NCBI GenBank assembly: GCA_964413095.1
Contig: CAYPRJ010000001.1
Coordinates: 6,975 to 70,974 of the forward strand
Source: Candidatus Woesearchaeota archaeon
GTDB taxonomy: Archaea > Nanobdellota > Nanobdellia > Pacearchaeales > GW2011-AR1
Length of the DNA stretch: 64,000 nt
Direction: 5' to 3'
Every line of letters begins with the position of its first letter. The first letter of the stretch is position 1. Of this stretch, positions 12,324-51,858 are shown piece after piece. The notes below the pieces were generated by a model. It was not told where the DNA came from. It worked only from the letters and a program-made list of their open reading frames with translations, and ran no database searches. The position numbers and the translations under genes are program-made.

Positions 12324-12673
12324 ATTAATTTTCTAAAAATATTTAAAGTATTTTTTCTTATTTAAATTATGGATTATAATTCAGGAAGCGACAAGAGGAA
12401 AAAGAGAAAAGATAAGAAAAAAGATAAAAAGAAACACCCTTATAAAAAAGGTGGGAAGAGGAGAACGCAGAAGAAGTAATCTTGTTGAAAATATCTATTA
12501 TCTGCCATTCACTACTCTCCAACCTCCCAATTAGCTGCTCATTATTATTCCAGAAATTTGCTTATTAACTTTAATCAATCAATTTGCGAAGCAGCATTTT
12601 TTCAACTAAAGATTCTGATACACTAATAATTCTAAATACAAAATAATTTAAATAAACCACACATTTTTACTTA

Positions 12674-21057: not shown

Positions 21058-22335
21058 GTGGAGATGGAGCAAAAAAAATATTCAAAAGAGCTTTTGATAG
21101 GGATTTTTATTTTTGGAATAGCATTAACAATTTTTTTAGGAAGTTTTGTAGTTGCAGATTTTTATAATAAAGTAACAACCACTTATGTTCAAAATGGAAC
21201 TAACATAACAGTTCTTGTTTTTAATATTTCTAACACAACTGCAGCAAATGGAACAGAAAGTCCAACTTTGTTACATAATATAACAATAAATAATACTGGA
21301 ACTAGTGCAGTGGGAAATAATATAACAAGGGTTACTATCACAAATGGTACTTGGATATTTTCTAATGCCTCGCTTAATGGAATTCCATATATTATAGCTA
21401 TAGATAAGAATATAACACATGAGATGAATTTAACAATAAATTTCACAATAAATTCAAGTATGCAAACAGATGGAGCAACAATCCAGGCAAATATTACAGC
21501 TTTGGAAAATAGCTCAGGAGCTCTTAATTATACTGCATTACCTTTCAATTCTTCTACAACCACAATTGATGGAGCAGGACCAACAGTTAGCGCATCGTGT
21601 AATGATGTGAATAAAGGAGATGCATTAGATTGTTCATGTTCAGCAAGTGATAATGTTGGAGGAGTTAATTCAACCTCAACTAAAACTGATTCAGATTCAG
21701 GAACAGGAACACAGGAGCATACTACATCTCTTGGGTTTACATTCACGTGTAAAGCGACAGATTGGTTTGGAAGAACAAATAGTACTACTGCAAAATATAT
21801 TGTAAGTGAAACCTCATCTAATAGAGATAGAGGAACAAGCGGAACTACGGGAACAACATGGTCAACCCACGCAATAACTCAAGAGCAATTTCAAAACGGA
21901 TATACTAGCCAAATTCAAGTAAACAAGAGAATAAGAGTCCAAGTTGAAGGAGAAGATCATCATGTTGGAGTTAAGGAGGTAAGTAGCGAGACAGTAAAAT
22001 TAGAAATTTCTTCTGAGCTTCAAGAAGCAAATCTTGCAATAGGAGATTCAAGAAGATTTGATGTTACAGGAGATGGTTATTATGATATTCTTGTGACATT
22101 AAATGATATTGTTGATGGCAAAGCAGATTTGACAATTAAGTCAATACACGAGGAAATAACAGAAGAAACAGAACAAGAGGAAGCTGAAAAAGAAACTACT
22201 TCTACAGGCGAAGGTGAAGAAGAGCCTATAAGTGAAGAAGAAGATTTAACTTGGTTGTGGATTGTTATTGGTGTAGTTGTTTTAGCTGCTGTAATTGGTG
22301 GTGGAGTTGCGGCTAAAAAAAGAAAGAGACAATAA
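21058..22335 (+). CDS. surface (S-layer-like) glycoprotein candidate with N-terminal signal/TM, dense N-glycosylation sequons and C-terminal TM anchor
   Basis: More than 25 N-x-S/T sequons in the first 200 aa. C-terminal hydrophobic helix followed by KKRKRQ. Confidence 0.45.
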   Translation: MEMEQKKYSKELLIGIFIFGIALTIFLGSFVVADFYNKVTTTYVQNGTNITVLVFNISNTTAANGTESPTLLHNITINNTGTSAVGNNITRVTITNGTWIFSNASLNGIPYIIAIDKNITHEMNLTINFTINSSMQTDGATIQANITALENSSGALNYTALPFNSSTTTIDGAGPTVSASCNDVNKGDALDCSCSASDNVGGVNSTSTKTDSDSGTGTQEHTTSLGFTFTCKATDWFGRTNSTTAKYIVSETSSNRDRGTSGTTGTTWSTHAITQEQFQNGYTSQIQVNKRIRVQVEGEDHHVGVKEVSSETVKLEISSELQEANLAIGDSRRFDVTGDGYYDILVTLNDIVDGKADLTIKSIHEEITEETEQEEAEKETTSTGEGEEEPISEEEDLTWLWIVIGVVVLAAVIGGGVAAKKRKRQ

Positions 22336-22366: not shown

Positions 22367-24700
22367 ATGGATAATTTAACAAATAAAGATGTAATCTTTT
22401 CTGACTTTCATATACATTCACGATTTTCTAGAGCTTGTAGCAAAAATATTACTTTTGAGAATTTAACTAAGTGGGCGAAAATTAAAGGGCTTAACTTATT
22501 AGGTACTGGAGATTTTACTCATCCAATTTGGTTTAAAGAGATTAAGGATAAATTAATTGATAATGGAAATGGTTTTTACCTTGATTCTGCAACAGGTTTT
22601 CCGTTTATTATTACAGGAGAAATTTCTTTGATGTATTCTCAAGGAGGAAAAGGAAGAAGAGTTCATCTTGTATTGCTTGTTCCTTCAATTGAAATTGCTG
22701 AGAAGATAAATTCTTATTTTGATAAAAGAGGAAGAAGAGATTATGATGGCAGGCCTATTTTTAAAATTTCATGTGAAGATTTTGTTAAAGATATGATGGC
22801 TATCTCTGAAAGCATTGAAATAATCCCTGCTCACATTTGGACTCCCTGGTTTGGTATTTTCGGAAGCCAAACAGGATTTGATAGTTTAAAAGAAGCTTTT
22901 GGAGAACAAGTTGAAAATATTCATGCAATTGAAACCGGGATCTCATGTTATGATTCTAAAACAGAGATTTTAACAGAGAAAGGTTGGAAATTTTTTAAAG
23001 ATGTAAATAAATCTGATAATATTTGTACACTTGATCCAGAAAATTATAATATTGAATTTCAAAAGCCTCTTAATATTTTTAAAAGAAAATATAAAGGTAA
23101 AATGTATAAATTAGAAACTAAGAGAGTAAATCTTTTAGTTACCCCTAATCATAAGCTGTTTTATAGCCACTGTGATTTTAGAAAGAAACCAAATTTTTCT
23201 CTGAAAAAGGCAGAGTTATTATTCAATAAATCAAAAAGGTTTAAGAAGGATGGGAACTGGAGAGGGAAAAATCAAAAATATTTTGTTTTACCAAAAGTGA
23301 GAATTAAGCATGGAAGCAAATATTACTCAGGTGAGAGAAACAAAGAGATTAAGAAATTTCCAATTAAAGAGTGGTTGAGATTTTTTGGTTTTTGGATTGC
23401 CGAAGGATGTACACATCAGGGAAAGAATGGAGATTATGGGGTTTATATTTTTAATGATAAAAAAGATGTTCTTTTGGAAATGAAAAAGATTTTAGAGGGT
23501 TTTGGATACAGACCTTATCTTGATAAAAATATTCTTAGAGTAAGAGATTTTCAATTATTTAAATATCTAGATCAGTTTGGAAAATCTGGAGATAAATATA
23601 TCCCTTTAGAGATTAAATCTCTTTCTAAGGAATTGCTTCAACTTTTTTTTGATTATTATATTAAGGGAGATGGCCATAGATATGGAAGAAATAACAAAGG
23701 TCTTTCTGCAACAACTATCTCTAAAAAATTAAGAGATGATTTACAAGAAGTAGCTTTAAAATTAGGAATGTCTGCATATTATAAATTACATAATAAAAAA
23801 GGAACATCCATAAACTCTCTTCCAGTAGCAAAATCAAAAGGTTATAAACAATCTAAAGATTCTTGGAATGTTTATTTTATTAAAGAAAATCTTCATACAG
23901 TTATTCCCTCTACTATTAAAAAATGGAATTATAAAGAGAAATGGATTCAGTATAATGATTATGTTTATTGTGTTCAAGTTCCAAATCATGTGATTTATAT
24001 TAGAAGAAACGGCATTCCTGTTTGGTGTGGTAATTCAGACCCTGAAATGAATTGGAAAATTAAAGAGCTGACAGAGAATAATATTTCAATTGTTAGTTTT
24101 TCAGATGCTCACTCTCACTGGCCATTTAGATTAGGAAGAGAAACAACTATTTTCAAAAAAACAAATTCATATAAAGAAATTATAAGACAAATTAGAGAAA
24201 ATGATTTTATTGGAACAATTGAAACAGAGCCTGCCTATGGAAAATACCATTGGGATGGACACAGAAATTGTAATTTTTCTTGTTCTCCGAATGAAGCAAA
24301 AGAGCTTAATTATATTTGCCCTATTTGTGGAAATCCTTTGACAAGAGGAGTAGAAAACAGAGTTGAATTCTTAGCAGGAAATCCAGAGAATTTTAAACCA
24401 AAAAGTGCAAAATTTTTTTACAAACTTCTTCCTTTACATGAGCTAATTGTTTTAGTTTATGGAGGAAGTTTACAAAGCAAAAAAAACTGGGAAATTTATG
24501 ATTCTTTGATAAAAGAATTTGGAAATGAGTTCAATGTTTTGCTGAATGTTTCTAAAGAAAAATTATTAAGAATTAATTTAAATGATAAATTAGTTGAGAT
24601 GATTTTGAAAAACAGAGAGGGTAAGATTAAAGTCAAGCCAGGTTATGATGGTGTTTATGGAGAGGCATTGTTAGAAGAGAAACAATCAAAATTATTTTAA
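22367..24700 (+). CDS. endonuclease Q (EndoQ, PHP-fold) containing one intein
   Basis: The N-terminus DFHIHSRFSRACSKNITFENLTKWAKIKGLNLLGTGDFTHP matches the EndoQ PHP domain. C-terminal Zn finger CPICGNP. Intein blocks in between. Confidence 0.6.
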   Translation: MDNLTNKDVIFSDFHIHSRFSRACSKNITFENLTKWAKIKGLNLLGTGDFTHPIWFKEIKDKLIDNGNGFYLDSATGFPFIITGEISLMYSQGGKGRRVHLVLLVPSIEIAEKINSYFDKRGRRDYDGRPIFKISCEDFVKDMMAISESIEIIPAHIWTPWFGIFGSQTGFDSLKEAFGEQVENIHAIETGISCYDSKTEILTEKGWKFFKDVNKSDNICTLDPENYNIEFQKPLNIFKRKYKGKMYKLETKRVNLLVTPNHKLFYSHCDFRKKPNFSLKKAELLFNKSKRFKKDGNWRGKNQKYFVLPKVRIKHGSKYYSGERNKEIKKFPIKEWLRFFGFWIAEGCTHQGKNGDYGVYIFNDKKDVLLEMKKILEGFGYRPYLDKNILRVRDFQLFKYLDQFGKSGDKYIPLEIKSLSKELLQLFFDYYIKGDGHRYGRNNKGLSATTISKKLRDDLQEVALKLGMSAYYKLHNKKGTSINSLPVAKSKGYKQSKDSWNVYFIKENLHTVIPSTIKKWNYKEKWIQYNDYVYCVQVPNHVIYIRRNGIPVWCGNSDPEMNWKIKELTENNISIVSFSDAHSHWPFRLGRETTIFKKTNSYKEIIRQIRENDFIGTIETEPAYGKYHWDGHRNCNFSCSPNEAKELNYICPICGNPLTRGVENRVEFLAGNPENFKPKSAKFFYKLLPLHELIVLVYGGSLQSKKNWEIYDSLIKEFGNEFNVLLNVSKEKLLRINLNDKLVEMILKNREGKIKVKPGYDGVYGEALLEEKQSKLF
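22946..24034 (+). mobile_element. EndoQ intein (~363 aa) with LAGLIDADG domain; C-terminal boundary uncertain by 3 residues
   Basis: Starts CYDSKTEILTEKGWKF (block A), LAGLIDADG block FFGFWIAEGC, block F/G YVYCVQVPNHVIYIRRNGIPVWCGN|S. The terminal motif is atypical, GN rather than HN. Confidence 0.6.
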
Positions 24701-31882: not shown

Positions 31883-34800
31883 TTATAGCCGAAATTTCCC
31901 TCCTTTCATAAACTTCTTAGCCATTTTCATAAGTTGCTTTTGTGACATGGCTTTTTCTGGGTTCATACCAGACATGCCTTCTTTAATCATTTCATTAAGC
32001 ATTTTGTATTGTTTTAATAAAGAACGAACATCACTTCCATGAACTCCTGCTCCTTTTGCTATTCTGGCAATGCGGGAAGTTTCTTTTTCCAAGAGCTCTG
32101 GATTTTCTTTTTCTTCTGGTGTCATTGATTTAACTATATGCTCCCATTTTGAAATTTTAGCTTCTTGATTTTCTAAGAGATTTTCAGGAACCTTTTTTTC
32201 TATGTTCGCAAAACCAGGAACCATGTTTTTTATTTTATCTAAACCTCCCATAGAGCCCATTGATTTAACTTGTTCTATAACATCTTCAATAGAAAGTTTT
32301 CCTTCCTGAAGCCGCTTTTGCATAGCTTCTTGTTTTTTTCCTCCTGTTGCTGATTTTATTTTTTCAATCAAGGACTGCAAATCACCCATACCAAGAAGTC
32401 TTGAGAGAAAATTTTCTGGATTAAATTCTTCTATGTCATTTGCTTTTTCTCCTGTTCCTATAAAATAAACAGGAGCCTTCACTTCATTACAAGCTGTTAA
32501 AGCTCCTCCTGCCTTGGCAGTTGAGTCCATTCTCGTTATTATAACTCCAGAGATATTTACTGCTTCTTTAAATTGAGAAGCTTGTTGGTGTGCTGCCTGC
32601 CCAATATCTGCAGGCATAACTAGGATGTTTTCAGTTGGTTTTATTGTTTTTTCTAGTTGTTTTATCTCTTTAATTAGCTCTTTGTCTAAAGTGTGTCTAC
32701 CTGCTGTATCAATAAGAATTAAATCATAATCTTTCAGTTCTCTTTCAAACTTTTTCCAGATTTTTATTGGATTTTTTTCTTTGGCATCTATGAAGCAATT
32801 TAAATTATATTTTTCTGCAAGTTGTTTTAATTGTTCTGGAGCTGCTGGTCTATGTGTGTCCAATCCTACAAGAGCAACTTTGTGCCCTCTTTTAGCGTAA
32901 TAATTTCCAATTTTTGCAATTGTTGTTGTATTGTGCACAACTATTCCATCAGCCAAAAAACTGTGATTATCTTCCACTGTTAAATCATAAACAAATTTTT
33001 CATCATTTTTAATATGATTAATCTCTTTTACTGGAGTCCAACAAATATTAGAAGATGAAAGAAGTTCAAAAGATTTTAACAGAGGCTCTAATTTACTTTT
33101 ATGTATAATTTGTAAATATTGCATTCCTCTTTCAGTTAGAGAATTTTTAATTCCTTTTTCTACAAATCCTTCTTGTTTCAAATGTTTTAAAATACCATTA
33201 ACTGCCCTATATGAATATTTATTTGATATGGATATATTATTTGAGATATCATTTAAGATACCCAAAAAAACTCCTTCTTTTTTCATTCTGTAATATAATA
33301 GGAGTTTTTTCAATTGTTCTTTTGAGATCAATCCTTTTTTTTCATATATTCCATAGCTATAAACCGCATTTTCTTGTATTTCTCCTATTGAGAAACCAAG
33401 AGCAAACCTTAATGCTTTTAATGAATTTCCTAAAGGAATCATGTCTTGATTCCCTGCTCCTTGTATCTTTCCAATCTGATTATACTTTTCTGTTATTTTT
33501 TGTTTGTAATTTATCAAATATCCTATTTTTTCAGAATAAATCTCAGCATATTTTCCTTTAATATATAATGTCCAATAAGAAATATTATTAATAATCTTTT
33601 TAGATATAGATGATAATATTCCAAGTCTTCTAAGGAGTAAGGACATTTGTTGTAGATTTATGTAGCTTTCTGATGATACTTCTATATACCTCTTATTTTT
33701 GCTTGGTGAAGAATCACAATCAAAATAAGCTTTTATGAATGACCTAATTACTTCATTATTTGAAAGCATTATCTGCTTTGGGATTTCAAGATTTCTTCCT
33801 TTCTTTCCTACGTTAAATCCAAATTTCTGTAATATTTTAACTAAAGTAACTGAATTTAATCTAATGTAGTAAAGATTTTTACTTCTCTTATCTTTTGTTA
33901 AAGTAGGAGTTAAATTAAAAATAATTTTGGATAGCTCAATAATTCTATTTATTATTTCAATATCCTCGTTTGATATATGTATACTTCTTTCGCTAATATA
34001 ACCATCACCTATGACATATCCTATAAATTCTGACAATTCTTGAGTTAGATGAAGGGGAAAAGATATTATTTTACTACTCTTTACATGTTTTAATCTTAAG
34101 AAATTATATTTTTCTTTTTCTATAAATTCTATTGGTATTCTTCCTTTGTTAATAATTGAGGTAAGGTAACTATAATTTTTTTTATATTTTAAATTACTGT
34201 ATCCCTCCTTTATTGAATTGTATTTTTTTAAGATATTTTGTTTAGCTTCTTTGGGGGTTAAATAAGCTTCTAAATTGAGATTTTTTATATAATCGAATAA
34301 ATTTATTGTTTTCCCTTCTATTTCTATTTTATTGGGAATAGATATGAAATCCTCTTTTGTTAACTCATCAGCCCTTATTTGAGTGATTTGTCCATTTTTT
34401 AGGACAAAAAAGGGATGCTCTGGTGTTACTTTAATTGAAGAGTCATTTCCATTACCAATTTTGACTTCAATCAATTCATCTTTTTTTAATTTCCATAAAT
34501 AAGTCGCTTTTTTATTCTCAATTTTTAAAGTTTTAGGATTAAATGATGGGATCTGTAATCTTTTATCTTGTATGTTGATTATTTTTCCATCCTCTATATT
34601 TTCTTCTAAATCTTTATATCTTTCATATAATTTTTTTGCTTTGATTATCTCTCCATTTCCCAGCTGGATTTTACTTTCTGAATGAACACATTTTCCTGCT
34701 CCATATAAACCAAGGAGTATAATTCTGTTTTGTTCTTTGCTTTGTAAAGCTAATTGTTTATGCTCTCCAAGAATTTCAACTAACTCATCATGTAATAGTT

Positions 34801-35023
34801 TTATTATATGTTCTTTTTTGTCTATTTCTTTTATTTTTTCATCTAATGCAGTTTTTTTTATTTTATCACTTAAATCCTTAACTAAAGACACATTTACATC
34901 TGCTTCAATCATAGCTCTTTGCAAATCTCTGACAACAGAATCAACAAGATTTTTATCTAAGAATATAGCATTAGCTATTTTGTTTGTTGCTTTTCTTAAC
35001 ACTTCTCCTAATTTTTCTAGCAT
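31883..35023 (-). CDS. srp54: signal recognition particle protein SRP54 containing one intein
   Basis: N domain, G domain with GLYGAGK|..|TTTIAKIG, DTAGRH, and an M domain with a Met-rich C-terminus. 1046 aa because of the intein. Confidence 0.9.
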   Translation of the reverse strand: MLEKLGEVLRKATNKIANAIFLDKNLVDSVVRDLQRAMIEADVNVSLVKDLSDKIKKTALDEKIKEIDKKEHIIKLLHDELVEILGEHKQLALQSKEQNRIILLGLYGAGKCVHSESKIQLGNGEIIKAKKLYERYKDLEENIEDGKIINIQDKRLQIPSFNPKTLKIENKKATYLWKLKKDELIEVKIGNGNDSSIKVTPEHPFFVLKNGQITQIRADELTKEDFISIPNKIEIEGKTINLFDYIKNLNLEAYLTPKEAKQNILKKYNSIKEGYSNLKYKKNYSYLTSIINKGRIPIEFIEKEKYNFLRLKHVKSSKIISFPLHLTQELSEFIGYVIGDGYISERSIHISNEDIEIINRIIELSKIIFNLTPTLTKDKRSKNLYYIRLNSVTLVKILQKFGFNVGKKGRNLEIPKQIMLSNNEVIRSFIKAYFDCDSSPSKNKRYIEVSSESYINLQQMSLLLRRLGILSSISKKIINNISYWTLYIKGKYAEIYSEKIGYLINYKQKITEKYNQIGKIQGAGNQDMIPLGNSLKALRFALGFSIGEIQENAVYSYGIYEKKGLISKEQLKKLLLYYRMKKEGVFLGILNDISNNISISNKYSYRAVNGILKHLKQEGFVEKGIKNSLTERGMQYLQIIHKSKLEPLLKSFELLSSSNICWTPVKEINHIKNDEKFVYDLTVEDNHSFLADGIVVHNTTTIAKIGNYYAKRGHKVALVGLDTHRPAAPEQLKQLAEKYNLNCFIDAKEKNPIKIWKKFERELKDYDLILIDTAGRHTLDKELIKEIKQLEKTIKPTENILVMPADIGQAAHQQASQFKEAVNISGVIITRMDSTAKAGGALTACNEVKAPVYFIGTGEKANDIEEFNPENFLSRLLGMGDLQSLIEKIKSATGGKKQEAMQKRLQEGKLSIEDVIEQVKSMGSMGGLDKIKNMVPGFANIEKKVPENLLENQEAKISKWEHIVKSMTPEEKENPELLEKETSRIARIAKGAGVHGSDVRSLLKQYKMLNEMIKEGMSGMNPEKAMSQKQLMKMAKKFMKGGKFRL
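32930..34690 (-). mobile_element. SRP54 intein (587 aa) in the P-loop, with LAGLIDADG domain
   Basis: Begins CVHSESKIQLGNGE after GAGK and ends DGIVVHN|TTT. LAGLIDADG blocks are FIGYVIGDGYIS and the surrounding DOD blocks. Confidence 0.85.
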
Positions 35024-40584: not shown

Positions 40585-40720
40585 AGCCTGTGGAGGGATT
40601 CTAACCCCCGGCCTACTGCTGGCTTTCTGAACATGTAGTTGGCTCAGATACAAGGCAGTTGAGCATATCTTAACCTTTTAGAGTCACAGATATTCCGCTC
40701 TAACACTGAGCTACACAGGC
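40585..40720 (-). tRNA. tRNA-Thr(TGT) with two introns (~36 nt after the D-arm, ~28 nt at 37/38)
   Basis: Reverse complement: acceptor GCCTGTG/CACAGGC, D-arm GCTC..GAGC, anticodon stem ACTGC/GCAGT with loop CTTGTA|intron|A, T-arm GGGGG-TTAGAAT-CCCTC. Confidence 0.6.
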
Positions 40721-41334
40721 TTAATATTAGACAGAGTTATATTCTTTAAAAAGTTTTGTCCCTTCAATCTTAATGGAAGTTTATTATCAAATCTTATATA
40801 ATAAAAAGGAATTTTATTTGTATAATTTATTTTTATTTTGGAACAATTTAGATTAAGTTCGTCGCATAATTTACTTACCCCTTTTATTAAATTAAATCTT
40901 TTCTGTTTAAGCTGAATTCTTTTATTATACACAGAACCATCTGTATCAACTAATCCTGCTAGATAATTTAGTGCACAAGTTTTATTTGTTTTAACTATCT
41001 TTGGGATTTTCCCAAATTTCTTCTTTCCAATTTCACTTTCTAATTTTACAAAATAAAAAAATAACCCTGCGTTTTCTATCTTTAAATAATATGAATTTTG
41101 TTTTCTATTATCTTTGTTAATCTTTCCATTAACTGAAAAAAGTTTGTTTAACACGTTTCTAATGTAATCAATATAGATTTCACTCCCTGAATAAACTCTG
41201 AGAAGATAATGATAACCTCCTTTTTTTCTTTTCGTTATACTTAAAGAACCATCACCTTCTATAACTCCTAAAAGATATGCAATATCTTTATTTATTGTGG
41301 GTATGTTTATTTCACTCCTTCTTGTTTTTATCAT
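40711..41334 (-). CDS. free-standing LAGLIDADG homing endonuclease-like protein
   Basis: Two LAGLIDADG motifs, YLLGVIEGDGSL and YLAGLVDTDGSV. 207 aa. The stop codon lies inside the 5' acceptor stem of tRNA-Thr. Confidence 0.8.
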   Translation of the reverse strand: MIKTRRSEINIPTINKDIAYLLGVIEGDGSLSITKRKKGGYHYLLRVYSGSEIYIDYIRNVLNKLFSVNGKINKDNRKQNSYYLKIENAGLFFYFVKLESEIGKKKFGKIPKIVKTNKTCALNYLAGLVDTDGSVYNKRIQLKQKRFNLIKGVSKLCDELNLNCSKIKINYTNKIPFYYIRFDNKLPLRLKGQNFLKNITLSNIKPV

Positions 41335-42610: not shown

Positions 42611-42719
42611 TGGTCCTGCGCGGAATTGAACCGCGGTTTTATCCATTTTGTGAACAGCTTACAGATTTAAGTGAACTGAACTCGTCAAGGACATGTCTTA
42701 GCCACTGGACTACAGGACC
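42611..42719 (-). tRNA. tRNA-Val(GAC) with ~37-nt anticodon-loop intron
   Basis: Reverse complement: acceptor GGTCCTG/CAGGACC, D-arm GTC-AGTGGCTAA-GAC, anticodon stem TGTCC/GGATA with loop TTGACG, T-arm CGCGG-TTCAATT-CCGCG. Confidence 0.6.
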
Positions 42720-42770
42720 CCTTAGTATTATGTTAGAAATATTTAAATAGTTTATTTTTATGTTATTGTT

Positions 42771-42965
42771 ATGAAGAGGATATTTAAAATAATAATTTTT
42801 TTAGTGTATTTGGTTTTTGGAATTTATTTTATAAACTCTTTTTTGAATTTTTTTGAAATTTCAGAATTCTTTGCTAATTTTAGTAAATGGATAAATTTAA
42901 TTGGTGGTATTTTGATTCTTATTGGAGGAATTAATTATTTAAGAGCTGGAAGAGAGCGCTATTAA
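42771..42965 (+). CDS. small membrane protein
   Basis: 64 aa, two hydrophobic helices. Confidence 0.2.
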   Translation: MKRIFKIIIFLVYLVFGIYFINSFLNFFEISEFFANFSKWINLIGGILILIGGINYLRAGRERY

Positions 42966-43123
42966 TTTTTTAAAAATTTTTTCTATTTCTAATTTAATTT
43001 TAATTGCTGGTTTTTTAGGTATTAAAAAAATTATTCTTAATTACTAAGTAAGTTAGTAATTAAGTTATTAAGAAACATTTAAATAAGGAAAATTATTGTA
43101 AATAATAAGAAAAGAAGTTACAA

Positions 43124-43255
43124 ATGAAAAAATATCTGCTTTTAATTGAAGATGAGAAACTTTGGAACAAATTTAAGAATTCTATTAATAAAGATATCAA
43201 TACAGAGATAATTAATTTAATAAAGAAAAAACTCAATATAGAGGTAAAAAAATGA
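43124..43255 (+). CDS. ribbon-helix-helix (CopG-like) small regulator candidate
   Basis: MKKYLLLIEDEKLWNKFKNSINKDINTEIINLIKKKL has a beta-strand then two helices as in RHH proteins. The stop overlaps the ATG of the downstream gene. Confidence 0.4.
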   Translation: MKKYLLLIEDEKLWNKFKNSINKDINTEIINLIKKKLNIEVKK

Positions 43256-45069
43256 GAAATAAAGGACAGGTGACAATTTTTATAATAATTGCAATAATAA
43301 TAGTTAGTGCTGTGATTGGTTTTTTTGTTTTAAGAGATACAATTAGTTTTAAAATGATTCCAAGTAGTGTAGAGCCAGTTTATACTACTTTTCAATCTTG
43401 TTTAGAAGAAGAAGTTTTGATAGGTGTTAATGTTTTGGAAAGTCAAGGAGGTTATATAGAACTTCCTGGATTTAAAGCAGGTTCATATTACTCTCCTTTT
43501 TCTTCTCAGCTTAATTTTCTGGGAAATGAAATTCCCTATTGGTATTACTTATCTGCAAGCAACCTTGAAAAAGAACAAGTTCCTTCAAAAAAAGATATGG
43601 GGGAGCAACTTGAAAAATTTGTTGAAGAAAACATAAGAGAATGCGTATTTGATGAATATTATGAGCAGGGTTTTGAAATTGATATGGGAGAACCAGAAGC
43701 TCAAATTGTGATTTTAGATAAAAAAATAAACTTAAATTTAGATATGGATTTGAGTATTAGTAATGAAAAAGATAAAGTATTAGTTGAGAACCATGATATT
43801 TCTGTTGATTCAAATCTAGGAAATCTGTATGATTCTGCAAAAGAAATTTATGAAGAAGAGCAAGAGAATTTATTTTTAGAAAATTATGCTGTGGATAATT
43901 TAAGATTGTATGCTCCTGTTGATGGAACTGAGTTAAGCTGTTCTCCTGAAATTTGGAATGCAGATAATGTCTTTTCTGATTTGCAAGAAGCAATTGAGTT
44001 TAATACTTTGTCTTTGAAAACACAGGGAAATGAAAACGATTATTTTGTTATTGATACTTCTGTTGATAATACTAGATTTATTAATTCAAAAAATTGGCCA
44101 AGTTATTTTGAAGTTGTTCCTTCTGATGGAAATATGTTAATTGCAGAGCCAATAGGCAATCAAGAAGGACTAGGAATTTTAGGATTTTGTTATGTTCCTT
44201 ATCATTTTGTTTATGATTTAAAATATCCTGTTTTAGTTCAGGTTTATGAAGGAGAAGAAATTTTTCAGTTTCCTTTAGTAGTTTCTATAGAAAAAAATAA
44301 GCCAAGAAAACCATTGAATGCAAGTGCTGGGAATGTCAAGGAATCTGAAGTTTGCAAATATCAAACTACTCCTGTGGAAATTAGAACTTATGACAGAAAC
44401 TTAAATTCTATTGAATCAAAAATAACTTATGAATGTCTTGGTGAAACTTGTTATATTGGAGAAACTTCTTCTGGTGTTTTAGAGAATAATTTTCCTCAAT
44501 GTGTTAATGGTTATATAGTTGTAAAATCAAACGGTTTTAAAGAAACTAAGCATCTTTATTCAACAACTCAGTCAGGAAGTGTAGATATCATATTAGATAA
44601 ATTATATGAAATGGAACTTGAATTGAGTTTAGATGGAGCAAGTTATAATGGTGAAGCAATGGTTACTTTTATTTCTGGAGATGATTCAAAAACAATTATT
44701 TATCCAGAGCAGAATTCAATTGAACTAAGCGAGGGACAGTATGAAATACAAGTTTATATTTATGAAGAATCTTCTTTGAATCTGGAGTCAACTACTTCAG
44801 AACAGTGTGTTGATGTTTCTTCTGGTTTAGGCGGAGTTTTTGGAATAACAGAGGAGAAATGTTTTGAGATGGAAATTCCTTCGCAAATTGTTTCAAGTGC
44901 TTTATCAGGAGGAGGCAAAGAGAATTATTATATTCTAGAAAATGAATTAATAGACTCTAATATTATTAAGATAAACGCAGAAAGTTTACCAAAGCCAAAA
45001 ACAATTGAACAATTGCAAGATAATTATTTATTATTTGAAAATAAAGAGTTGGGAATTGTATTTAGATGA
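43252..45069 (+). CDS. large secreted pilin-like/adhesin protein with class III signal peptide
   Basis: MRNKG|QVTIFIIIAIIIVSAVIGFFVL is a KGQ prepilin-type N-terminus. 605 aa, Cys pairs. Confidence 0.45.
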   Translation: MRNKGQVTIFIIIAIIIVSAVIGFFVLRDTISFKMIPSSVEPVYTTFQSCLEEEVLIGVNVLESQGGYIELPGFKAGSYYSPFSSQLNFLGNEIPYWYYLSASNLEKEQVPSKKDMGEQLEKFVEENIRECVFDEYYEQGFEIDMGEPEAQIVILDKKINLNLDMDLSISNEKDKVLVENHDISVDSNLGNLYDSAKEIYEEEQENLFLENYAVDNLRLYAPVDGTELSCSPEIWNADNVFSDLQEAIEFNTLSLKTQGNENDYFVIDTSVDNTRFINSKNWPSYFEVVPSDGNMLIAEPIGNQEGLGILGFCYVPYHFVYDLKYPVLVQVYEGEEIFQFPLVVSIEKNKPRKPLNASAGNVKESEVCKYQTTPVEIRTYDRNLNSIESKITYECLGETCYIGETSSGVLENNFPQCVNGYIVVKSNGFKETKHLYSTTQSGSVDIILDKLYEMELELSLDGASYNGEAMVTFISGDDSKTIIYPEQNSIELSEGQYEIQVYIYEESSLNLESTTSEQCVDVSSGLGGVFGITEEKCFEMEIPSQIVSSALSGGGKENYYILENELIDSNIIKINAESLPKPKTIEQLQDNYLLFENKELGIVFR

Positions 45070-45362
45070 AAAAAAGAGTAGAAAAAAAACTTTTGAATTT
45101 ATTAAAAATAGCCAGCTTGATATTAGGAGTTATAGCAATTGTGCTTTTAATTATTGCTATTATTAAAAATGTTATATAAAAATGAGATAGTTGACAATAG
45201 AATGGATAATAAATGTAGTGAATTTTCTAATTTATATTTTAATATTTGTCAGAGCCATAGCAGCAGGATATTTCAATACTTTCGATTTGTTTGCTACATT
45301 AATCGGAGTTTTAGCAGGAGTAATGTTTTTGACATTCAAAATACTAAGGAGCAAAGAACAAA

Positions 45363-48300
45363 ATGAATAAGCAAAAAGCAAATAAAATTGAAAGATTTTT
45401 TTTAGCAGGAATTTTGTTAGTTGTTTTAATCTCTTTTGTTTCAGCGTCGTATTCTTTGTCAAATTTTGGTATTGGTGATTCTGATAAATCTTTAAGTTTT
45501 GATGATAAAAGTTGTGAAGCTGGACAGGATTTTCTAATAAAAATTTCTTCTTTTGGATGTACACCAAGTGTTGTTAGAAGTGATTTGCTTGAAGAACAAA
45601 ACGTTCCTGTTTTTTGTCAGCTTTCAGCCACAAAATTAAATCCTTTGATTGATGTTGAAGCTATTGAAAGTATTTCATTTAAAGGAGATTATCCAGATGC
45701 AGTTTCTGGTATTGGTTTTTATCCTGCAAAATCTGCTTTAAGTGCTAAACAAGATATTAATTATCCTGTTTTGAATAATATTGGTTATGTTACTATAGTC
45801 TTGAAAGAGCAAGCCAATGAATCTTCAATGCCAGATGTTGTCAAAGGAAATTTAACTGCTAATATAAAATATGATATAAAAAATGCTTTTGGTGTTGGAA
45901 AAGCTAATTTTTATCTTCCGAGTTTAACAGATGAAGAATGGGAAGAAAGATATTTTCAATATGGTTTTTGGGAGAAAAAAGGATATTTAAGAGCAGAAAA
46001 TATTGAATCAAACAGTGCAACAATTTCTGTTTATAATAAAAATTTGCAAAAAACATCTAGTGTTAATTTAGAAAAAGGAAAAACTTCTAAAGAAATTTAT
46101 ATTCCAGGTTTTGATTATTGTCAGGGAAGTTTACAGTTGAGGTTAGATAGTGTAGAAGCTGCAGATACAAGAGCAAGATTAAGAGTAAATGAAGATATTG
46201 TTGAAGTTGCAAGAAGAGAGAAGTTTTTAGATAATAAATGTACTGTTATTGGTTTAGAAAGAGATGGTTTAGTTCAAAATGTAGAAATTAGATGTGATGA
46301 AGATGAAGGAAGGAAAACCATTACACTAAGAATTGAGCCAAAAATTAAAATTAGTATTGATGGAGAAGAAAGAGAAGTAGGAGTTGGAGATTATTTATAT
46401 GAAGATGAGGAAAAAAATGAATTTGTGTATTTAGGGCATATAGGAGCAAAAAAAGACAGCACCAACATAGAAGATATTTATTTATTTGTTGTTAGATTAC
46501 CTGAGTTTGAAAAAAAATTAAGCCAAGATAAAATTTCTTCTATTGGAAATTTTGTTGATAAACTTGAGTATAAAGATTTAACTGGAAATGTAGTGACAGA
46601 TGTGCTGTTAAATTCTTTGAGATTATTTGGAGCAGGAAGTGAAGCATTATTTAGGCGTATTGTTGAAGGACAAGCTTATAGAATTGTTTCTTATCCTGAA
46701 ATAGAAGAGGTTTTTGGGCAAGAAATTCAAATAATTGATTTTGTTGATGTTCAAGATAAAGAACTTAATGGAGCAGAAGAATATTATCAAAATGCTATAG
46801 GTGATTATAAAAATATAGTTGAGAATTTTGCTGGAGAAAAATATCCAGAAAATAGCAGAGTTAACTTAGGAGAAGAAGCTTTATATCAGCAGATAATTCT
46901 TGCAAGAGATTTAGGACAAGGAAAAACTATGGTTGATTTATGCGAGAACTTTAAAGAAAAATATCCTGATTCTGATATAGACCTTAGTGATTGTGATGAT
47001 AGTTACAAACTTTCTAATTCAGAGATTTCAACAGATTATGTTAAAATTAATGGAAAAACTGAGAAAATTTCTTTTGATGGAATTTATGAACCAGGATTTT
47101 ATGATTATGGAGCAGAAGTTTTAGTTGAGGGGCCTAATGGTGAAAGGTCATTATTGTATCTTTCAAAGGATCAAACTATTAATTTGGATGATTTTAGAGA
47201 TGAAGAAAATCTAAATGAATTTATTCAACTAGTTTCTCTTGATGATGATTCTGCTAGATTAAAGATAAATCTTGCTGAAACTGGTTTGAAAAAATTGATT
47301 TCTTCAGATAATAAAAATCTGAAAAAAGATATTTCTGAAAGTTTTGGAAGTGATTATATTTTTACATTAAAAGATATACATCTTGAAAAATCAGCAAAAG
47401 TTTCTGTGATTCCTAATATTAATAATGTTGGAACAGAGGCGAATTTTAGTTTTCAAATTGGAATAGAAAAAAGATGGAATTTAACTTTAGCTCCTGATAC
47501 AATTGAAAAAAGGATTGATGCTTTGAATGGAACAATTGGCAAATTGCAGAATATTTCTGATACTCTTGGAGACGTAATTAAAGTTGGAAAAACTGCATGT
47601 CTTGGTACAGGAGCTGTTTTAACTATTAAAAATTTCTTAGCTAATCTTGAGGGAACAGGAATTGCAAGGCAAAAAGTTATGAGAGGAGAAAATGGTTGGT
47701 ATGAGAAATGCACTGATTTAGTTGAAAAAGGAGAATATGTTTCTTTAGAACAATGTTTTCTTGAAAACTCTGATAAGATTGATAAAGATGTTGAAGAGGT
47801 AACTGAAATAATAAATAAACAAGATAAAGAAATAAAAAAAATTCAAGAGCAGTTCACCGAGAGTAAATTTTTATCTGAAAAAGTTGTTGATACAGATAAA
47901 TTTATGGAAGAATTCACTGAAAAAGTTCAAGAAGAGATTTCTGTTTTAGGAAATAGTTTTGAAGATCCAAGAGGTAAGGGAGAGAGTATTAATATTGAAG
48001 AAATGAGAAAAACTCTTTCTTATGAAGGATGGAAACAAGGTTATTATAGTACAGAGAAACTTAAAGAAATAGAACTTGCTTTAATGGTTTTGGAATCTGG
48101 TGCTGATGAAGATTTGAAAAATATTTATAGGGAGAGACTTTATTCTGACCTTTCAGAAGTGCAAGCGAACTCAGAAAGTTTTGCAGAAATTTCAAATTTA
48201 GCAAATGACTTGAATGTTCAATCAAGCCAGATTTCATTTTTAGAAGTTGGAGAAAGAGTTAAGGAAATTACTTATGGTGGTTTAACAAATAAAGATACAG

Positions 48301-51300
48301 AAATACAAGAAATTGATGAGAATGTTCCTGTTTCTGTTTTGCAAACTTCTAGGGGAGATAAGCTTATACTTATTTTAGATGATTCTTCAGGAACAGAGAT
48401 TTTACCTATTAAAAGAGATGAAGATGACTCTTTAGTTGTTTATGGTGTGAATGGCAATAGGCTCTCTTCAGAAGAGCTTTCTGGAAGTTTAGTTAAAGAA
48501 TTAGATCAGATTTATTTTAAGAAATATGATAAATCTTCTTATGAGAATTCTTATAAAAACGCAGAATTGAAATATTATGAAACAGAGCCGTACAAAGGTT
48601 TTCCTGCTATTGTGCCTTTTGATTTAGGTAATGGTTGGTATGCAGCAACAAAACAAACAATTTCAACTGGAGCAAGTATTGCAAGTTATGATAAATCTGG
48701 GCAAGTTAATAGTTTTTATTTGTGCAATGTTGGAAAAAATGGAATACAGGAATTTTACTCTTCAGCAGGAGATGATAATTGCAGAGGATTTAATTTAGGA
48801 ACAGGGCAAGCTTATGACCAGTTTGCTGGTTTAAAAGAGAAAGAAACAAAAGATTTAGTGGAGTGTGCAGTTGATGCTATTGAACAAGCTTCTGATGCAT
48901 ATGAATCAGAGGTTAGTAGAGTTAGAATAAGAACTAGTTGTGGAGGAACAGTAACTTTAAAGGTTGGTGAGCCAGCAGCAGATATTCCTGATATTCAGTG
49001 CCAGGATTTTATGTCTCCAAAGGATTGTAATTTGCTTTTTAATGTTTGTGATCCTTTTATTTGCCCTTCAAGTAGGTGTGATTTTGGAGGAGCCTACCCT
49101 GTAAAAGATGTTGTTCAATCAGGAATAATTGGAAGTTTAATTCTTTGTCTTCCAAATGCCCAAGAAGGAATTGCTGTCCCAGTTTGTATAACTGGAATAA
49201 AAGCAGGAACTGATGGCTGGCTTTCTGTTATGGAATCTTATAGAGATTGTTTGCAAGAAAGTTTAGAGACAGGAAAAAATATGGGAATATGTGATGAAAT
49301 GCATAGTGTTTATTTATGTGAGTTTTTCTGGAAGCAAGCACTTCCTTTAGCTGATTTAGCAGTACCAAAAGTATTGGAGGCTTTTTCAGGACAAGGTACT
49401 CAAGGTGGAGGAGAATATCTTTCTGTTCAAAATGCTTGGGAAAATGCAGAAAATTCTTTAGATTATTTTACTCAGTCTTATGCAACTGAATCTTATAAAG
49501 CATTTCAGGCAAGATCTACAGGAGAAGCAGGAACTTTAGTTTGCAAAACATTTGCTTCAGCAGCATATGCTGATACAGGAAGTTTATTTGATGCAATGAC
49601 TGAAGCAGAATCACCAGCACAGTATCATGGGAACTTTGAAGAGATTACTTTTAGCACTGTAACTTCACCTCCAACTTCTCATTATAAGGTGTTTTATCAT
49701 ATTTATGCAGGAGAAAATTCTGGAGCTTATTATAAAGTTTATTTGAAAGGAAGTTCTGAAAGCTTTTATCAGGATGCTTCAAGAACCAGACAAGTAGCTT
49801 CAGGATATGTGGCTGCAGGAGATTATGCTTCTGAGACAGAAGATTTTACTGCTCCTTCTGGCTATACTCAGATGTGTATAAATGTTAATGGAGAAGAAGA
49901 GTGCGGTTTCAAAGAAGTTTCAACTTCTTTTGCTGCTGATTATATTACAGATAGTTATGCGAAAGAGCAGATTGAAAAATCAGATATTACTACAGAGGAG
50001 GAATGTGTTTCAGGAACTGTCAGTGTTTATAGTTTGCTTGATTTGAATCTTCAAAGTTCTGTTGAGGAATTAATTGACCCTGCTATTTATGAAAAAGGAA
50101 TAACAAGAGTTTGTGCTACAGACAATCCTGGAAAAGGAACTGATCCTTATTCAGGAACTGAAGATTCAAGGTGGGTTGAAGTTGGTTATTGTGATTCAGA
50201 GAATATGAAATGCTGGCTTGATACTAAAAGCATTAAAGATGCAATAGAACTTGAAGGTGTAGAAGAAGAAGCATTAGATACAGTTACAAAAAGTTATATG
50301 GATATTTTGAGAGAAGAAGGAGATTATCTTTCTGAAAAGGAGTTTGAAAAGAAACTTGAAGAAATTGAGGAAGAAGAAAATTCAGAAGAAAAAATTAAGT
50401 TAGTTGAAGAAATTCTTGACAGAGTTTTCCTTAATAATAAAAGAGCTTACTTGTTATTGTTAAGAGGAAATGCTTATGGAGATTTGGCTTTAAATGCATT
50501 TAGAGGAGTAATATCTAAAGTAACTGGAGGAGAAGCTGGTGGAAGTGCTGGTGTTGGAGATGAGACTGGTGCTGAGACAGGTGTTGAAGGAGATATGTCA
50601 GATATAGAGAAAACTTATGAAATAGATAGAATTGGTTTTAAAATAGATGATAAAGAAGCTGAGTTTAAAGAAGATGTTAAAAAGCAAGCAGATGAAGATG
50701 TTGAGCTTGTTGTAGAATATGAGTATAATTGTGAATATGCAGAGTATCAAGTTTTTTCTCCTCAAGGTTTCTTTAAGGGTTTAGTTAGTGGTTTTGATTG
50801 GAATAAGCAAGTTTCTGGAAGAATTGATAAAGAAAGAGTGGACTTGCTTTTGAATAAACTTGATGAAGAGACTTATTATGTTAATGGTTATTGTTTTGAT
50901 GAAAAAGGGAATTCAAAGAAAACTAAATCTAATAATTTAATTGTAGCAGAAGTTTCTGGAGAAGAAATTATTGAAACTCCTTCTTTGTTTGATAGGTATG
51001 AAAAAATTGTGGATGAAAATGATGAGAATTTGTTTGATAAATATGCTGAAGAGAATTTGCCAGAAGGATGGAATCCTAATAAATTTAAAGCTTTACTTGT
51101 TGCTATTGCTATAAGACAGAGTAATCTTGGTTATCCTGAAGGAATTTATGATCCAAGATGGATTATGGAATATGGCTGGGAAGTAAGAGAAGACAAATTA
51201 CAAAGAATAGAAAAGTATGTTTGCCAAGAAGGAACTGATGTTAATGGATTATCTTCTGAAGAAGTTTTAAAGTGTGCAGAAGCACAAATTAAAGATGCTT

Positions 51301-51533
51301 CTAAAACTTTGAAGTTTGCTTTGGATAAGAGTGTGAATAAAGAAAGTGATTACTCAAAATGTGATAAAACAATTTATAGGTTAAGAAGTGATTCTTTGAT
51401 AAAATGTGTTTTAAGTGTTTATATGACTGGAGAGAATTCTAAGATTATTGGAGAGAGTGAAGGAGAAAAATATGCTAAAGAAGTAATGGAAATAATGAAA
51501 GAGTGGGAAGATTATTTTTCTAAGAATTCTTAA
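45363..51533 (+). CDS. giant secreted surface protein (2056 aa) with Cys-rich central module
   Basis: N-terminal signal peptide FFLAGILLVVLISFVSASYS, a 6.2-kb uninterrupted ORF, a central dense Cys cluster (CQDFMSPKDCNLLFNVCDPFICPSSRCDF...), and an acidic linker EEEENSEEKIK. Confidence 0.6.
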   Translation: MNKQKANKIERFFLAGILLVVLISFVSASYSLSNFGIGDSDKSLSFDDKSCEAGQDFLIKISSFGCTPSVVRSDLLEEQNVPVFCQLSATKLNPLIDVEAIESISFKGDYPDAVSGIGFYPAKSALSAKQDINYPVLNNIGYVTIVLKEQANESSMPDVVKGNLTANIKYDIKNAFGVGKANFYLPSLTDEEWEERYFQYGFWEKKGYLRAENIESNSATISVYNKNLQKTSSVNLEKGKTSKEIYIPGFDYCQGSLQLRLDSVEAADTRARLRVNEDIVEVARREKFLDNKCTVIGLERDGLVQNVEIRCDEDEGRKTITLRIEPKIKISIDGEEREVGVGDYLYEDEEKNEFVYLGHIGAKKDSTNIEDIYLFVVRLPEFEKKLSQDKISSIGNFVDKLEYKDLTGNVVTDVLLNSLRLFGAGSEALFRRIVEGQAYRIVSYPEIEEVFGQEIQIIDFVDVQDKELNGAEEYYQNAIGDYKNIVENFAGEKYPENSRVNLGEEALYQQIILARDLGQGKTMVDLCENFKEKYPDSDIDLSDCDDSYKLSNSEISTDYVKINGKTEKISFDGIYEPGFYDYGAEVLVEGPNGERSLLYLSKDQTINLDDFRDEENLNEFIQLVSLDDDSARLKINLAETGLKKLISSDNKNLKKDISESFGSDYIFTLKDIHLEKSAKVSVIPNINNVGTEANFSFQIGIEKRWNLTLAPDTIEKRIDALNGTIGKLQNISDTLGDVIKVGKTACLGTGAVLTIKNFLANLEGTGIARQKVMRGENGWYEKCTDLVEKGEYVSLEQCFLENSDKIDKDVEEVTEIINKQDKEIKKIQEQFTESKFLSEKVVDTDKFMEEFTEKVQEEISVLGNSFEDPRGKGESINIEEMRKTLSYEGWKQGYYSTEKLKEIELALMVLESGADEDLKNIYRERLYSDLSEVQANSESFAEISNLANDLNVQSSQISFLEVGERVKEITYGGLTNKDTEIQEIDENVPVSVLQTSRGDKLILILDDSSGTEILPIKRDEDDSLVVYGVNGNRLSSEELSGSLVKELDQIYFKKYDKSSYENSYKNAELKYYETEPYKGFPAIVPFDLGNGWYAATKQTISTGASIASYDKSGQVNSFYLCNVGKNGIQEFYSSAGDDNCRGFNLGTGQAYDQFAGLKEKETKDLVECAVDAIEQASDAYESEVSRVRIRTSCGGTVTLKVGEPAADIPDIQCQDFMSPKDCNLLFNVCDPFICPSSRCDFGGAYPVKDVVQSGIIGSLILCLPNAQEGIAVPVCITGIKAGTDGWLSVMESYRDCLQESLETGKNMGICDEMHSVYLCEFFWKQALPLADLAVPKVLEAFSGQGTQGGGEYLSVQNAWENAENSLDYFTQSYATESYKAFQARSTGEAGTLVCKTFASAAYADTGSLFDAMTEAESPAQYHGNFEEITFSTVTSPPTSHYKVFYHIYAGENSGAYYKVYLKGSSESFYQDASRTRQVASGYVAAGDYASETEDFTAPSGYTQMCINVNGEEECGFKEVSTSFAADYITDSYAKEQIEKSDITTEEECVSGTVSVYSLLDLNLQSSVEELIDPAIYEKGITRVCATDNPGKGTDPYSGTEDSRWVEVGYCDSENMKCWLDTKSIKDAIELEGVEEEALDTVTKSYMDILREEGDYLSEKEFEKKLEEIEEEENSEEKIKLVEEILDRVFLNNKRAYLLLLRGNAYGDLALNAFRGVISKVTGGEAGGSAGVGDETGAETGVEGDMSDIEKTYEIDRIGFKIDDKEAEFKEDVKKQADEDVELVVEYEYNCEYAEYQVFSPQGFFKGLVSGFDWNKQVSGRIDKERVDLLLNKLDEETYYVNGYCFDEKGNSKKTKSNNLIVAEVSGEEIIETPSLFDRYEKIVDENDENLFDKYAEENLPEGWNPNKFKALLVAIAIRQSNLGYPEGIYDPRWIMEYGWEVREDKLQRIEKYVCQEGTDVNGLSSEEVLKCAEAQIKDASKTLKFALDKSVNKESDYSKCDKTIYRLRSDSLIKCVLSVYMTGENSKIIGESEGEKYAKEVMEIMKEWEDYFSKNS

Positions 51534-51720
51534 TAGTTAAATTACGCGGGAGAAAGGATTCGAATGAAAACTTCTGACTCTGAAATCACACTTCCAGCAA
51601 CCTGAATCCTATTTATGCGGGAGAAAGGATTCAAATTCAAAACCTCGCGGTTTTGTATCCAGATGCAACTTCCTCTTTTTGCCTTTGAAGGAAGTTATCA
51701 TATAGTTCGAATCCTATTTA

Positions 51721-51858
51721 TGCGGGAGAAAGGATTCGAACCTTCGCAGGCACTAAGCCAACAGGTTTCTTCGAGTTAGTTTGCGTTATTTGTGAGACAT
51801 AATCTCTCGCAATCTTCTCGCCTAAGCCTGTCCCGTTTGACCACTCCGGCACTCCCGC
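51721..51858 (-). tRNA. tRNA-Leu(TAG), class II with long variable arm, 54-nt intron at 37/38
   Basis: Reverse complement: acceptor GCGGGAG/CTCCCGC, anticodon stem ACAGG/CCTGT with loop CTTAGG|intron|A, variable arm TGGCTTAGTGCCTGC, T-arm GAAGG-TTCGAAT-CCTTT. Confidence 0.7.

Follow-up and report, generated by a model that had tools for sequence, protein, structure and literature searches.

The window analysed here, a 64,000-nucleotide (nt) stretch of a Candidatus Woesearchaeota archaeon genome (contig CAYPRJ010000001.1, positions 6,975 to 70,974; G+C ~29%), encodes a pair of genes whose products are good candidates for the means by which these archaea hold on to bacteria as hosts. The first gene specifies p605, a 605-amino-acid (aa) protein with a prepilin-type signal, and the second a secreted, cysteine-rich protein of 2056 aa, here called the giant. 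Both are conserved across the lineage at one chromosomal position, and the giant is built from a ~1700-aa core and an exchangeable C-terminal tail. The giant family itself is already known and functionally unexplored; the literature consulted does not describe its partner gene, the small open reading frames (ORFs) that accompany the pair, or the core/tail anatomy. Pacearchaeota and Woesearchaeota are abundant, uncultured organisms with minimal genomes, and the finding bears on whether some DPANN archaea live on bacteria.

A scan at one genome per species found a p605 relative encoded in 225 species genomes. The best 80 of these were labelled Pacearchaeota, Woesearchaeota, Nanoarchaeota/Nanoarchaeia, or simply "archaeon," apart from one labelled Bacillota. 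Locus L022 (DATKUW010000047.1), titled "Bacillota bacterium," holds the full block of S3Ae, L44e, tm64, orf43, p605, giant, and TFB genes and is probably a mis-binned contig. The window was compared with 83 fetched related loci by tblastn and by analysis of the ORFs lying in the gaps. The giant gene directly follows p605 in 81 of them, and the remaining two end at or shortly past p605. The overlap between the two genes is exactly 4 nt in 42 of the 81 loci, with a gap or overlap of no more than 50 nt in most others. Each fetched contig has one such locus, flanked in most genomes by the genes for ribosomal proteins S3Ae and L44e upstream and for TFB downstream, all three of which the window also encodes. 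The window is archaeal in content, with these genes alongside intron-containing tRNAs and inteins in RadA and SRP54.

Conservation of sequence matches that of position. Median identity to the window was 57% for p605, 53% for the core block of the giant, and 46% for its N-terminal part, compared with 58% for S3Ae and 71% for L44e in the same genomes. Both p605 and the giant change about as slowly as S3Ae, which is unusual for surface proteins. More than 720 homologs of the giant were found, ranging from ~1700 to 3800 aa, and the best 120 are 44-55% identical over ~83% of the query. For p605 there are more than 2400 homologs; the top 120 among the matches listed are 603-640 aa long, ~60% identical, and all unannotated. 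When the core block (aa 1061-1706) was searched exhaustively with HMMER in a set of 1.84 billion representatives, 1083 representative clusters at 50% identity were retrieved, 923 of them at E<=1e-30; the best 150 were all giant-family proteins or fragments thereof. We consider the core block a closed family without remote relatives. No viral relatives were found in IMG/VR viral contigs, PHROGs, or BFVD, and, the chromosomal context being fixed, an origin in a phage or mobile element was rejected. The original prediction, made from the letters of this DNA, had treated the locus as a second surface module. Its reading as a cell-surface module holds, but rather than being variable, the locus is a slowly evolving, vertically inherited core pair at a fixed position.

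The p605 N-terminus, MRNKG/QVTIFIIIAIIIV (the slash marks the junction), has the features of a class III signal: a short basic leader, a small residue at -1, and an uncharged hydrophobic stretch of ~20 residues (MRNKG/QVTIFIIIAIIIVSAVIGFFVL). In the 120 relatives over which N-terminus, Cys, and sequon counts for this family were taken, almost every sequence has the junction [KR][GAS]/Q[VIL]T[IV]F, and the leader varies in length, mostly from 5 to 25 aa. A fixed junction behind a variable leader is the pattern expected of a class III (prepilin-type) processing site, so the prepilin signal originally assigned to p605 agrees both with its own sequence and with the conservation of the junction across the family. 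The ectodomain of ~575 aa contains 10 Cys, a number kept in 111 of the 120 members. Sequence and profile searches gave no Pfam, NCBIfam, PHROG, or PDB match for p605. The window also encodes an A24 prepilin peptidase (PF01478, 12674-13522, E=1.3e-12), and adjoining it is a 163-aa pilin-like ORF at 11832 with the leader MLNKRG/QGLST..., very like that of p605.

These two genes lie in a locus (5863-13522) that includes at least six ORFs with prepilin-type N-termini, starting at 5863, 6481, 9349, 10923, 11440, and 11832. A murein amidase of the Amidase_2 type at 9737-10930 opens with a basic leader and a hydrophobic helix, and an M23 peptidase lies at 4169-5302 in the same upstream locus. If wall hydrolases were carried on pilin-like anchors, this would agree with a bacterial host.

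The giant begins with a Sec-type signal peptide, and most of the ortholog N-termini displayed likewise combine basic residues in the n-region with a hydrophobic core and a site of small residues (VSA, ISA, or SSA). Past the signal there is no hydrophobic segment above the transmembrane (TM) threshold, and at the level of these motifs the protein is predicted to be extracellular, as a secreted, signal-peptide-bearing, Cys-rich protein of 2056 aa, which is how it had been described. A check for frameshifts came out in favor of a real gene. No stop codon interrupts the 6171-nt ORF, and its full-length alignment with homologs P0010 and P0023 shows no frameshift; its many homologs and preserved synteny point the same way; that the gene is an assembly artefact or a decaying pseudogene is thus refuted and almost certainly wrong.

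The giant was modelled by AlphaFold2 as two halves (pLDDT, the predicted local distance difference test, 64-69), and both halves were compared with PDB, and the C-terminal half with BFVD, by Foldseek. The models give the core a beta-sandwich-rich N-terminal half, long helical segments, the Cys-rich block, and a terminal helical region. The core has no fold relative in PDB or BFVD, the Foldseek matches being weak, generic beta-sandwiches with a best E of ~3e-3, and no sequence match in Pfam, NCBIfam, or PDB. The Cys-rich block is the most conserved part of the protein, and at least 17 of its Cys are invariant among 36 aligned sequences. The density first claimed, more than 20 Cys in 350 aa, was too high: the maximum is 15 in 350 aa, the block has its 21 in 500 aa (aa 1121-1617), and the whole protein has 38. 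The block also contains a Gly-rich hydrophobic stretch, VVQSGIIGSLILCLPNAQEGIAVPVCITGIKAG, at aa ~1245-1279, with a sub-TM Kyte-Doolittle score of 1.25-1.43. An acidic EEEENSEE does occur, at aa 1669, but it falls within the core, in its final helical part, and not in a linker as proposed.

Beyond aa 1705 the orthologs part ways, each ending in a modular tail of some 180-1200 aa; counts were made over 119-120 orthologous tails. Pfam identified SLT in four of the scanned tails, and also Glucosaminidase, Trypsin_2, DUF1615, TPM, and, weakly, CHAP/Amidase_6. The canonical SLT motif, ES...GLMQ, is present in 22 of 119 tails (~18%), and neither this motif nor that of the C-terminal module in 82 of 119, many of which are ~470-500 aa long. 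The SLT domain is therefore just one among many tails that can be exchanged on a core shared across the lineage. An unannotated module with the signature [FY]x(1-3)[WF]xW[SDT] (e.g., YKYINNEWYWSADQTNWMT) was also noted in 21 of 119 tails, sometimes duplicated; examples are homologs P0012, P0018, P0029, P0044, and P0064.

The tail encoded in the window comprises two modules. Module 1, found in 8 of 120 tails and sometimes duplicated, gave only weak, generic beta-sandwich matches in a fold search. Module 2 (with KALLVAIAIRQS at aa 1909) occurs in 23 of 120 tails and also as standalone proteins of 229-246 aa with QES or KES, and a profile search against 5.8 billion proteins returned only 4 short standalone relatives, unannotated. 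Its motifs AIAIRQS, xQI, SVYMTG, and KYAKEV are colinear with those of SLT, such that AIAxRQS pairs with AIIxQES, the invariant xQI with GxMQI, VYxTG with xYNG, and KYAxEV with NYVxxV; in the AlphaFold model, a helix, a beta-hairpin, and further helices follow in the right order for SLT. An hhalign comparison with ortholog SLT tails was colinear and in the expected register, but its probability was 9.6%, falling to 6.7% or 2.3% with larger alignments. No PF01464 match was obtained in Pfam for the giant, for 19 module 2 instances, or for 3 standalone relatives; a PDB profile search with the module 2 alignment was empty; and the listed Foldseek matches (PDB, BFVD) included no lysozyme or SLT structure. 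With hhalign this weak and no Pfam, PDB, or fold match, we call module 2 only SLT-like, its membership in SLT being unproven.

The residues at the catalytic position differ within the module 2 family. The window has R-Q1919-S, and 13 regex-matched instances have Q-S, whereas E-S or E-T is found in 3 tail instances and 2 standalone relatives; Gln is thus the state of the window and its close relatives, and Glu that of divergent and standalone members. If derived from SLT, module 2 would probably be catalytically inactive. The original prediction had envisaged a C-terminal enzymatic or binding domain of ~250 aa. A discrete, recurrent module is indeed there, but it spans ~180 aa and follows a separate module of ~120 aa, and its enzymatic nature is doubtful given Gln where SLT has the catalytic Glu. 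The structure prediction suggested for this region has been run and modelled strands and helices, but it yielded no SLT or lysozyme fold among the matches listed.

Both proteins avoid sites for N-glycosylation. The giant contains 6 N-x-S/T sequons compared with 13.7 expected. Family-wide, the ratio of observed to expected sequons is 0.44 for the cores and 0.24 for p605, with values below expectation in 118 of 120 members of each family, whereas cytoplasmic control proteins of the window match expectation or slightly exceed it. The number of Cys is conserved and mostly even (30 or 32 in the cores, 10 in p605). Such numbers, taken with the shortage of sequons, are in keeping with translocated proteins that have disulfide bonds and glycan-free surfaces. 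Archaeal S-layer proteins are typically glycoproteins, and because sequons are avoided and Cys counts are even, the giant is not likely to be an S-layer glycoprotein. A 425-aa ORF at 21058-22335 on the plus strand behaves differently, with 20 sequons versus 7.2 expected (z=+6), an N-terminal hydrophobic segment, and no Pfam family; if the window encodes an envelope or S-layer-type protein with heavy N-glycosylation, this ORF is the best candidate.

We propose, with about even confidence, that the two proteins form a tethered surface complex that engages a host wall, p605 holding the giant while the tail of the giant meets bacterial murein. In this model, p605 would be cut by the A24 peptidase and kept by its N-terminal hydrophobic helix in the membrane, or else at one end (tip or base) of a pilus-like fibre. 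The secreted, anchorless giant would be held at the cell surface by p605, and its tail would engage the murein of a bacterial partner. The tail encoded in the window would probably bind rather than cut, because Gln takes the place of the catalytic Glu in its SLT-like module, and cutting would be left to the separate M23 and Amidase_2 proteins. The small proteins tm64, tm37, and tm59 and the soluble orf43 may serve as accessory or assembly factors.

Several points weigh against this proposal. The association of p605 with the giant is so far a prediction rather than an observed binding. To our knowledge, none of the Pacearchaeota or Woesearchaeota has a known bacterial host. For the tail in the window, no hydrolase or wall-binding domain reaches statistical support. 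No fold can be recognised in the core, and its function is thus not readable from structure; within its most conserved block, AlphaFold confidence is ~30 for aa 1207-1417. Proteins of host contact are usually quick to diversify, and the slow evolution seen here is atypical of them. At 605 aa, p605 is far bigger than structural pilins, and it has no pilin HMM match in Pfam or NCBIfam, a test of low power here because the pilin-like ORF at 11832 has no NCBIfam match either.

The pair might instead belong to the structure of the envelope, with the giant as an S-layer-like canopy, p605 as its membrane stalk or anchor, and the tail as a decoration. SlaA/SlaB of Sulfolobales is the obvious model, being likewise a two-gene unit of a large secreted outer protein and a smaller membrane-anchored partner. 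A near-universal presence in the lineage, one locus per contig, a fixed position among housekeeping genes, translational coupling of the two genes, and a big, secreted, beta-sandwich-rich protein next to a smaller membrane-anchored one would all suit such a role. SlaB, however, is anchored by its C-terminus, and S-layer proteins are heavily glycosylated, fast evolving, and Cys poor, whereas p605 and the giant strongly avoid sequons, are rich in Cys, and evolve as slowly as a ribosomal protein. The interchangeable enzymes on the tails are also foreign to this explanation, the ORF at 21058-22335 is a better glycoprotein candidate within the same window, and the giant has few sequons and no S-layer structure among its PDB Foldseek matches. 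We consider an envelope role unlikely.

Two further explanations share with ours the idea of action on another cell. The giant could be a freely secreted antibacterial or bacteriolytic enzyme, released to kill or digest bacteria, with p605 an unrelated pilus component that happens to share the operon. A Sec signal with no anchor and the hydrolases on orthologous tails are what one would expect of it, and the killing of bacteria by peptidoglycan hydrolases from archaea is established (PMC12352652). Yet a diffusible lysin would not need a ~50%-identical 1700-aa core, the tail in the window lacks the catalytic Glu, 82 of 119 tails carry neither motif, and two features, evolutionary rates that match and the 4-nt overlap seen at 42 of the 81 loci, argue for a function in common with p605; a free lysin therefore seems rather improbable. 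Alternatively, once the tail has dealt with the wall, the Cys- and Gly-rich block could insert in the membrane of the partner as a pore, a fusion bridge, or a lipid or nutrient conduit. The most conserved part of the giant is indeed stabilised by Cys and has a Gly-rich stretch of sub-TM hydrophobicity, its family is closed and has no known relatives, and archaea with such minimal genomes must draw building blocks from partners (PMC8204110). A membrane device is nevertheless wholly inferential, the AlphaFold confidence of the block is too low (~30) to read its structure, and no fold likeness to fusogens, pore formers, or lipid-transfer proteins was seen, which leaves it quite improbable. The boldest form of the tethered complex would join these elements into a host-contact machine: a prepilin-type stalk, a tail that opens or grips the wall, and a block that inserts in the host membrane as a feeding conduit. 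We hold this to be improbable as well; if true, cells of different domains would here be in contact through an apparatus of a new class, unrelated to any known secretion system, fusogen, or toxin.

The closest functional analogies to a tethered p605/giant complex, with no homology implied, may be type IVb tip-pilin pairs and the phage or toxin bodies that carry swappable tails. In the type IVb systems CofB-CofJ (CFA/III of enterotoxigenic Escherichia coli, ETEC) and TcpB-TcpF (Vibrio cholerae), a tip pilin presents or exports a secreted partner, and here too an outsized pilin-signal protein stands beside an anchorless Sec-secreted one. Those systems, however, are bacterial, have no sequence or fold similarity to p605 or the giant, and have small secreted partners of ~30-40 kDa, whereas the interaction of p605 with the giant is hypothetical and no pilus assembly ATPase or platform gene adjoins the module. 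Phage tail-associated lysins, tape-measure proteins, and polymorphic toxins combine a conserved body or delivery part with interchangeable C-terminal enzymatic domains, as the giant family does with tail domains (SLT, glucosaminidase, CHAP, or protease) that vary from one relative to another. Unlike these, the giant has no viral relatives, its locus is chromosomal, single, and vertically inherited, and there are no immunity genes. The SPEARE proteins of Nanohaloarchaeota are also giant, secreted, and multidomain, and are proposed to attach to or degrade the envelope of a partner. A similar likeness holds for the giant genes of Omnitrophota (bioRxiv 10.1101/2023.11.21.568195), the two groups being drawn from other ultra-small or predatory microbes. 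No sequence relationship of either group to the giant was detected, its core block having no outside relatives in the 1.84 billion representatives.

The giant family has been noted before: as fam00969, a family of very large proteins restricted to Pacearchaeota and Woesearchaeota (Castelle 2021, PMC8204110), and, in a few Woesearchaeota metagenome-assembled genomes, under the name "large lytic murein transglycosylase" (Vigneron et al. 2022, PMC9723730; PMC10936187). These papers propose that the large murein-transglycosylase proteins of these lineages attach to or attack bacterial walls (PMC8204110, PMC9723730, PMC10936187), and another study reports that peptidoglycan hydrolases are especially common in Nanoarchaeota (PMC12352652). 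The host-interaction reading of the giant in the original prediction agrees with these proposals (PMC8204110, PMC9723730). The proteins described there and the window giant almost certainly form the same family: they share lineages, a size class reaching 3000 aa or more, and a predicted extracellular location, and orthologs of the window giant carry PF01464 SLT tails. The published family is defined by its SLT domain, whereas the defining part here is the ~1700-aa core and the SLT motif marks only ~18% of tails. By orthology of its core, the window giant is a member; by a literal SLT-domain criterion it is not, having no detectable SLT domain and only the SLT-like module with Gln for the catalytic Glu. 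Surveys rely on the SLT domain, which is why the large murein transglycosylase has been reported in few genomes. The consulted passages and supplements on the family describe no conserved core, prepilin-signal partner, small ORFs, or fixed locus, and likewise no sequon avoidance or Glu-to-Gln tail variant. The existence of such proteins will not surprise specialists, but the operon partner and the core/tail anatomy open the question of host attachment to experiment, with p605, the core, and the tail modules as lineage-wide targets for antibodies, pull-downs, cryo-electron tomography labelling, and the prediction of host range from tail type.

The pair belongs to an operon-like cluster larger than first noted, with six same-strand genes at 42771-51533: tm64, orf43, p605, tm37, tm59, and giant (Table 1). 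The four ORFs originally reported (orf43, p605, tm37, and giant) have the coordinates given for them, tm64 and tm59 were absent from that list, and the TM peptide described as 38 aa is real but has 37 aa plus a stop. The ATGA overlap reported for orf43 and p605 is likewise real, and p605 and tm37 overlap in the same way.

Table 1. Coordinates of the six-gene cluster, the parts of the giant protein, and nearby promoter-like sites (positions in the window).
Feature	Position	Strand	Description
TATA-like ATTTAAATA	42741..42749	+	30 nt upstream of tm64; palindromic
tm64	42771..42965	+	64 aa, two hydrophobic segments; conserved ahead of the p605/giant pair
TATA-like ATTTAAATA, second copy	43077..43085	+	47 nt upstream of orf43
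orf43	43124..43255	+	43 aa, basic, soluble (MKKYLLLIEDEKLWNKFKNSINKDINTEIINLIKKK...); stop overlaps p605 start (ATGA)
p605	43252..45069	+	605 aa; leader MRNKG, junction G5/Q6, hydrophobic helix to ~aa 27
tm37	45066..45179	+	37 aa, single TM; start overlaps p605 stop (ATGA)
tm59	45191..45370	+	59 aa, two TM, TTG start; overlaps giant start codon by 8 nt
Giant, whole ORF	45363..51533	+	2056 aa
Giant, Sec-type signal peptide	45363..45446	+	aa 1-28, MNKQKANKIERFFLAGILLVVLISFVSA/SY (...SFVSA/SY); cleavage inferred
Giant, conserved core	45447..50477	+	aa 29-1705
Giant, Cys-rich block	48723..50213	+	aa 1121-1617; 21 Cys; most conserved part of giant
Giant, Gly/acidic low-complexity linker between core and tail	50478..50597	+	aa 1706-1745; pLDDT <50 for fragment residues 662-689
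Giant, tail module 1	50598..50957	+	aa 1746-1865, ~120 aa; beta-sandwich, strands pLDDT 80-90
Giant, tail module 2	50991..51521	+	aa 1877-2053, ~180 aa; helical; Gln1919 at the SLT catalytic Glu position

The two small genes ahead of p605 recur in many genomes. By tblastn, tm64 was matched in 59 of the 83 loci at a median identity of 47%, with orthologs in loci L001 and L003 among others, and library scans gave it no Pfam or NCBIfam family. The smaller orf43 was found in 38-39 of the 83 loci with identities of 67-87% (about 79%) and the consensus MKKYLLLIEDEKLWxKFKxxIxKDINTEIIxLIKKK; in all but one or two of the loci that carry it, it extends past the p605 start, mostly by 4-11 nt. It is a real, highly conserved small protein. 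It had been proposed as a ribbon-helix-helix regulator, and its length and residue pattern, judged by eye, are compatible with that fold (~45 aa, strand-helix-turn-helix). No ribbon-helix-helix family matched it, however, in Pfam (20 members scanned) or NCBIfam, the sole match in a PDB profile search was a de novo designed protein (E=0.02), and hhalign against CopG, Arc, and Mnt reference sequences gave a probability of 1%; the assignment was set aside as unsupported.

Sequence searches of Pfam, NCBIfam, PHROGs, and PDB assigned no significant family to any protein of the module. For tm37 and tm59, no sequence matches were detected elsewhere in the 83 loci. A single-TM peptide of 33-35 aa nevertheless occupies the tm37 position in nine loci (L008, L020, L027, L030, L056, L062, L066, L071, and L075), and eight of these have a two-TM peptide of 56-65 aa at the tm59 position, with the common pattern W..N..NF...I / F......L....G. 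Because about nine other loci hold such peptides in the same ~300-nt gap, tm37 and tm59 are best described as a recurrent, optional insert. The p605-giant junction is a hot spot of other small insertions as well: a ~50-aa zinc-ribbon ORF (MKxKFCPRCKG...) in L033 (11824-12102) and L034 (11806-11964), a ~287-aa ORF common to L036 and L071, and methyltransferase- and acetyltransferase-like ORFs in L004.

The sequence ATTTAAATA occurs 18 times in the window, compared with 9 expected, and often lies 22-32 nt ahead of start codons or tRNA genes, as at 12646, 42741, 43077, 56986, and 57689. Being palindromic, the copy at 42741 also faces a tRNA on the minus strand (42611-42719). The spacing matches that of an archaeal TATA box with leaderless transcripts, and a promoter role may be supposed on this basis. 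After the copy at 43077, no more appear on the plus strand up to the end of the giant gene, a distribution that fits weakly with one transcription unit from orf43 to giant.

Directly after the giant stop are three direct 32-nt copies (51533-51564, 51604-51635, and 51709-51740; 72-100% identical) of the 3' end of a tRNA, the source being an intron-containing tRNA on the minus strand at 51721-51858. These copies could be att-site remnants of integration events. Another intron-containing tRNA (40585-40720) is abutted or overlapped by a free-standing LAGLIDADG homing-endonuclease ORF at 40711-41334 on the minus strand, and LAGLIDADG inteins are present in RadA (16159-20166), in SRP54 (31883-35023), and in the ORF at 22367-24700.

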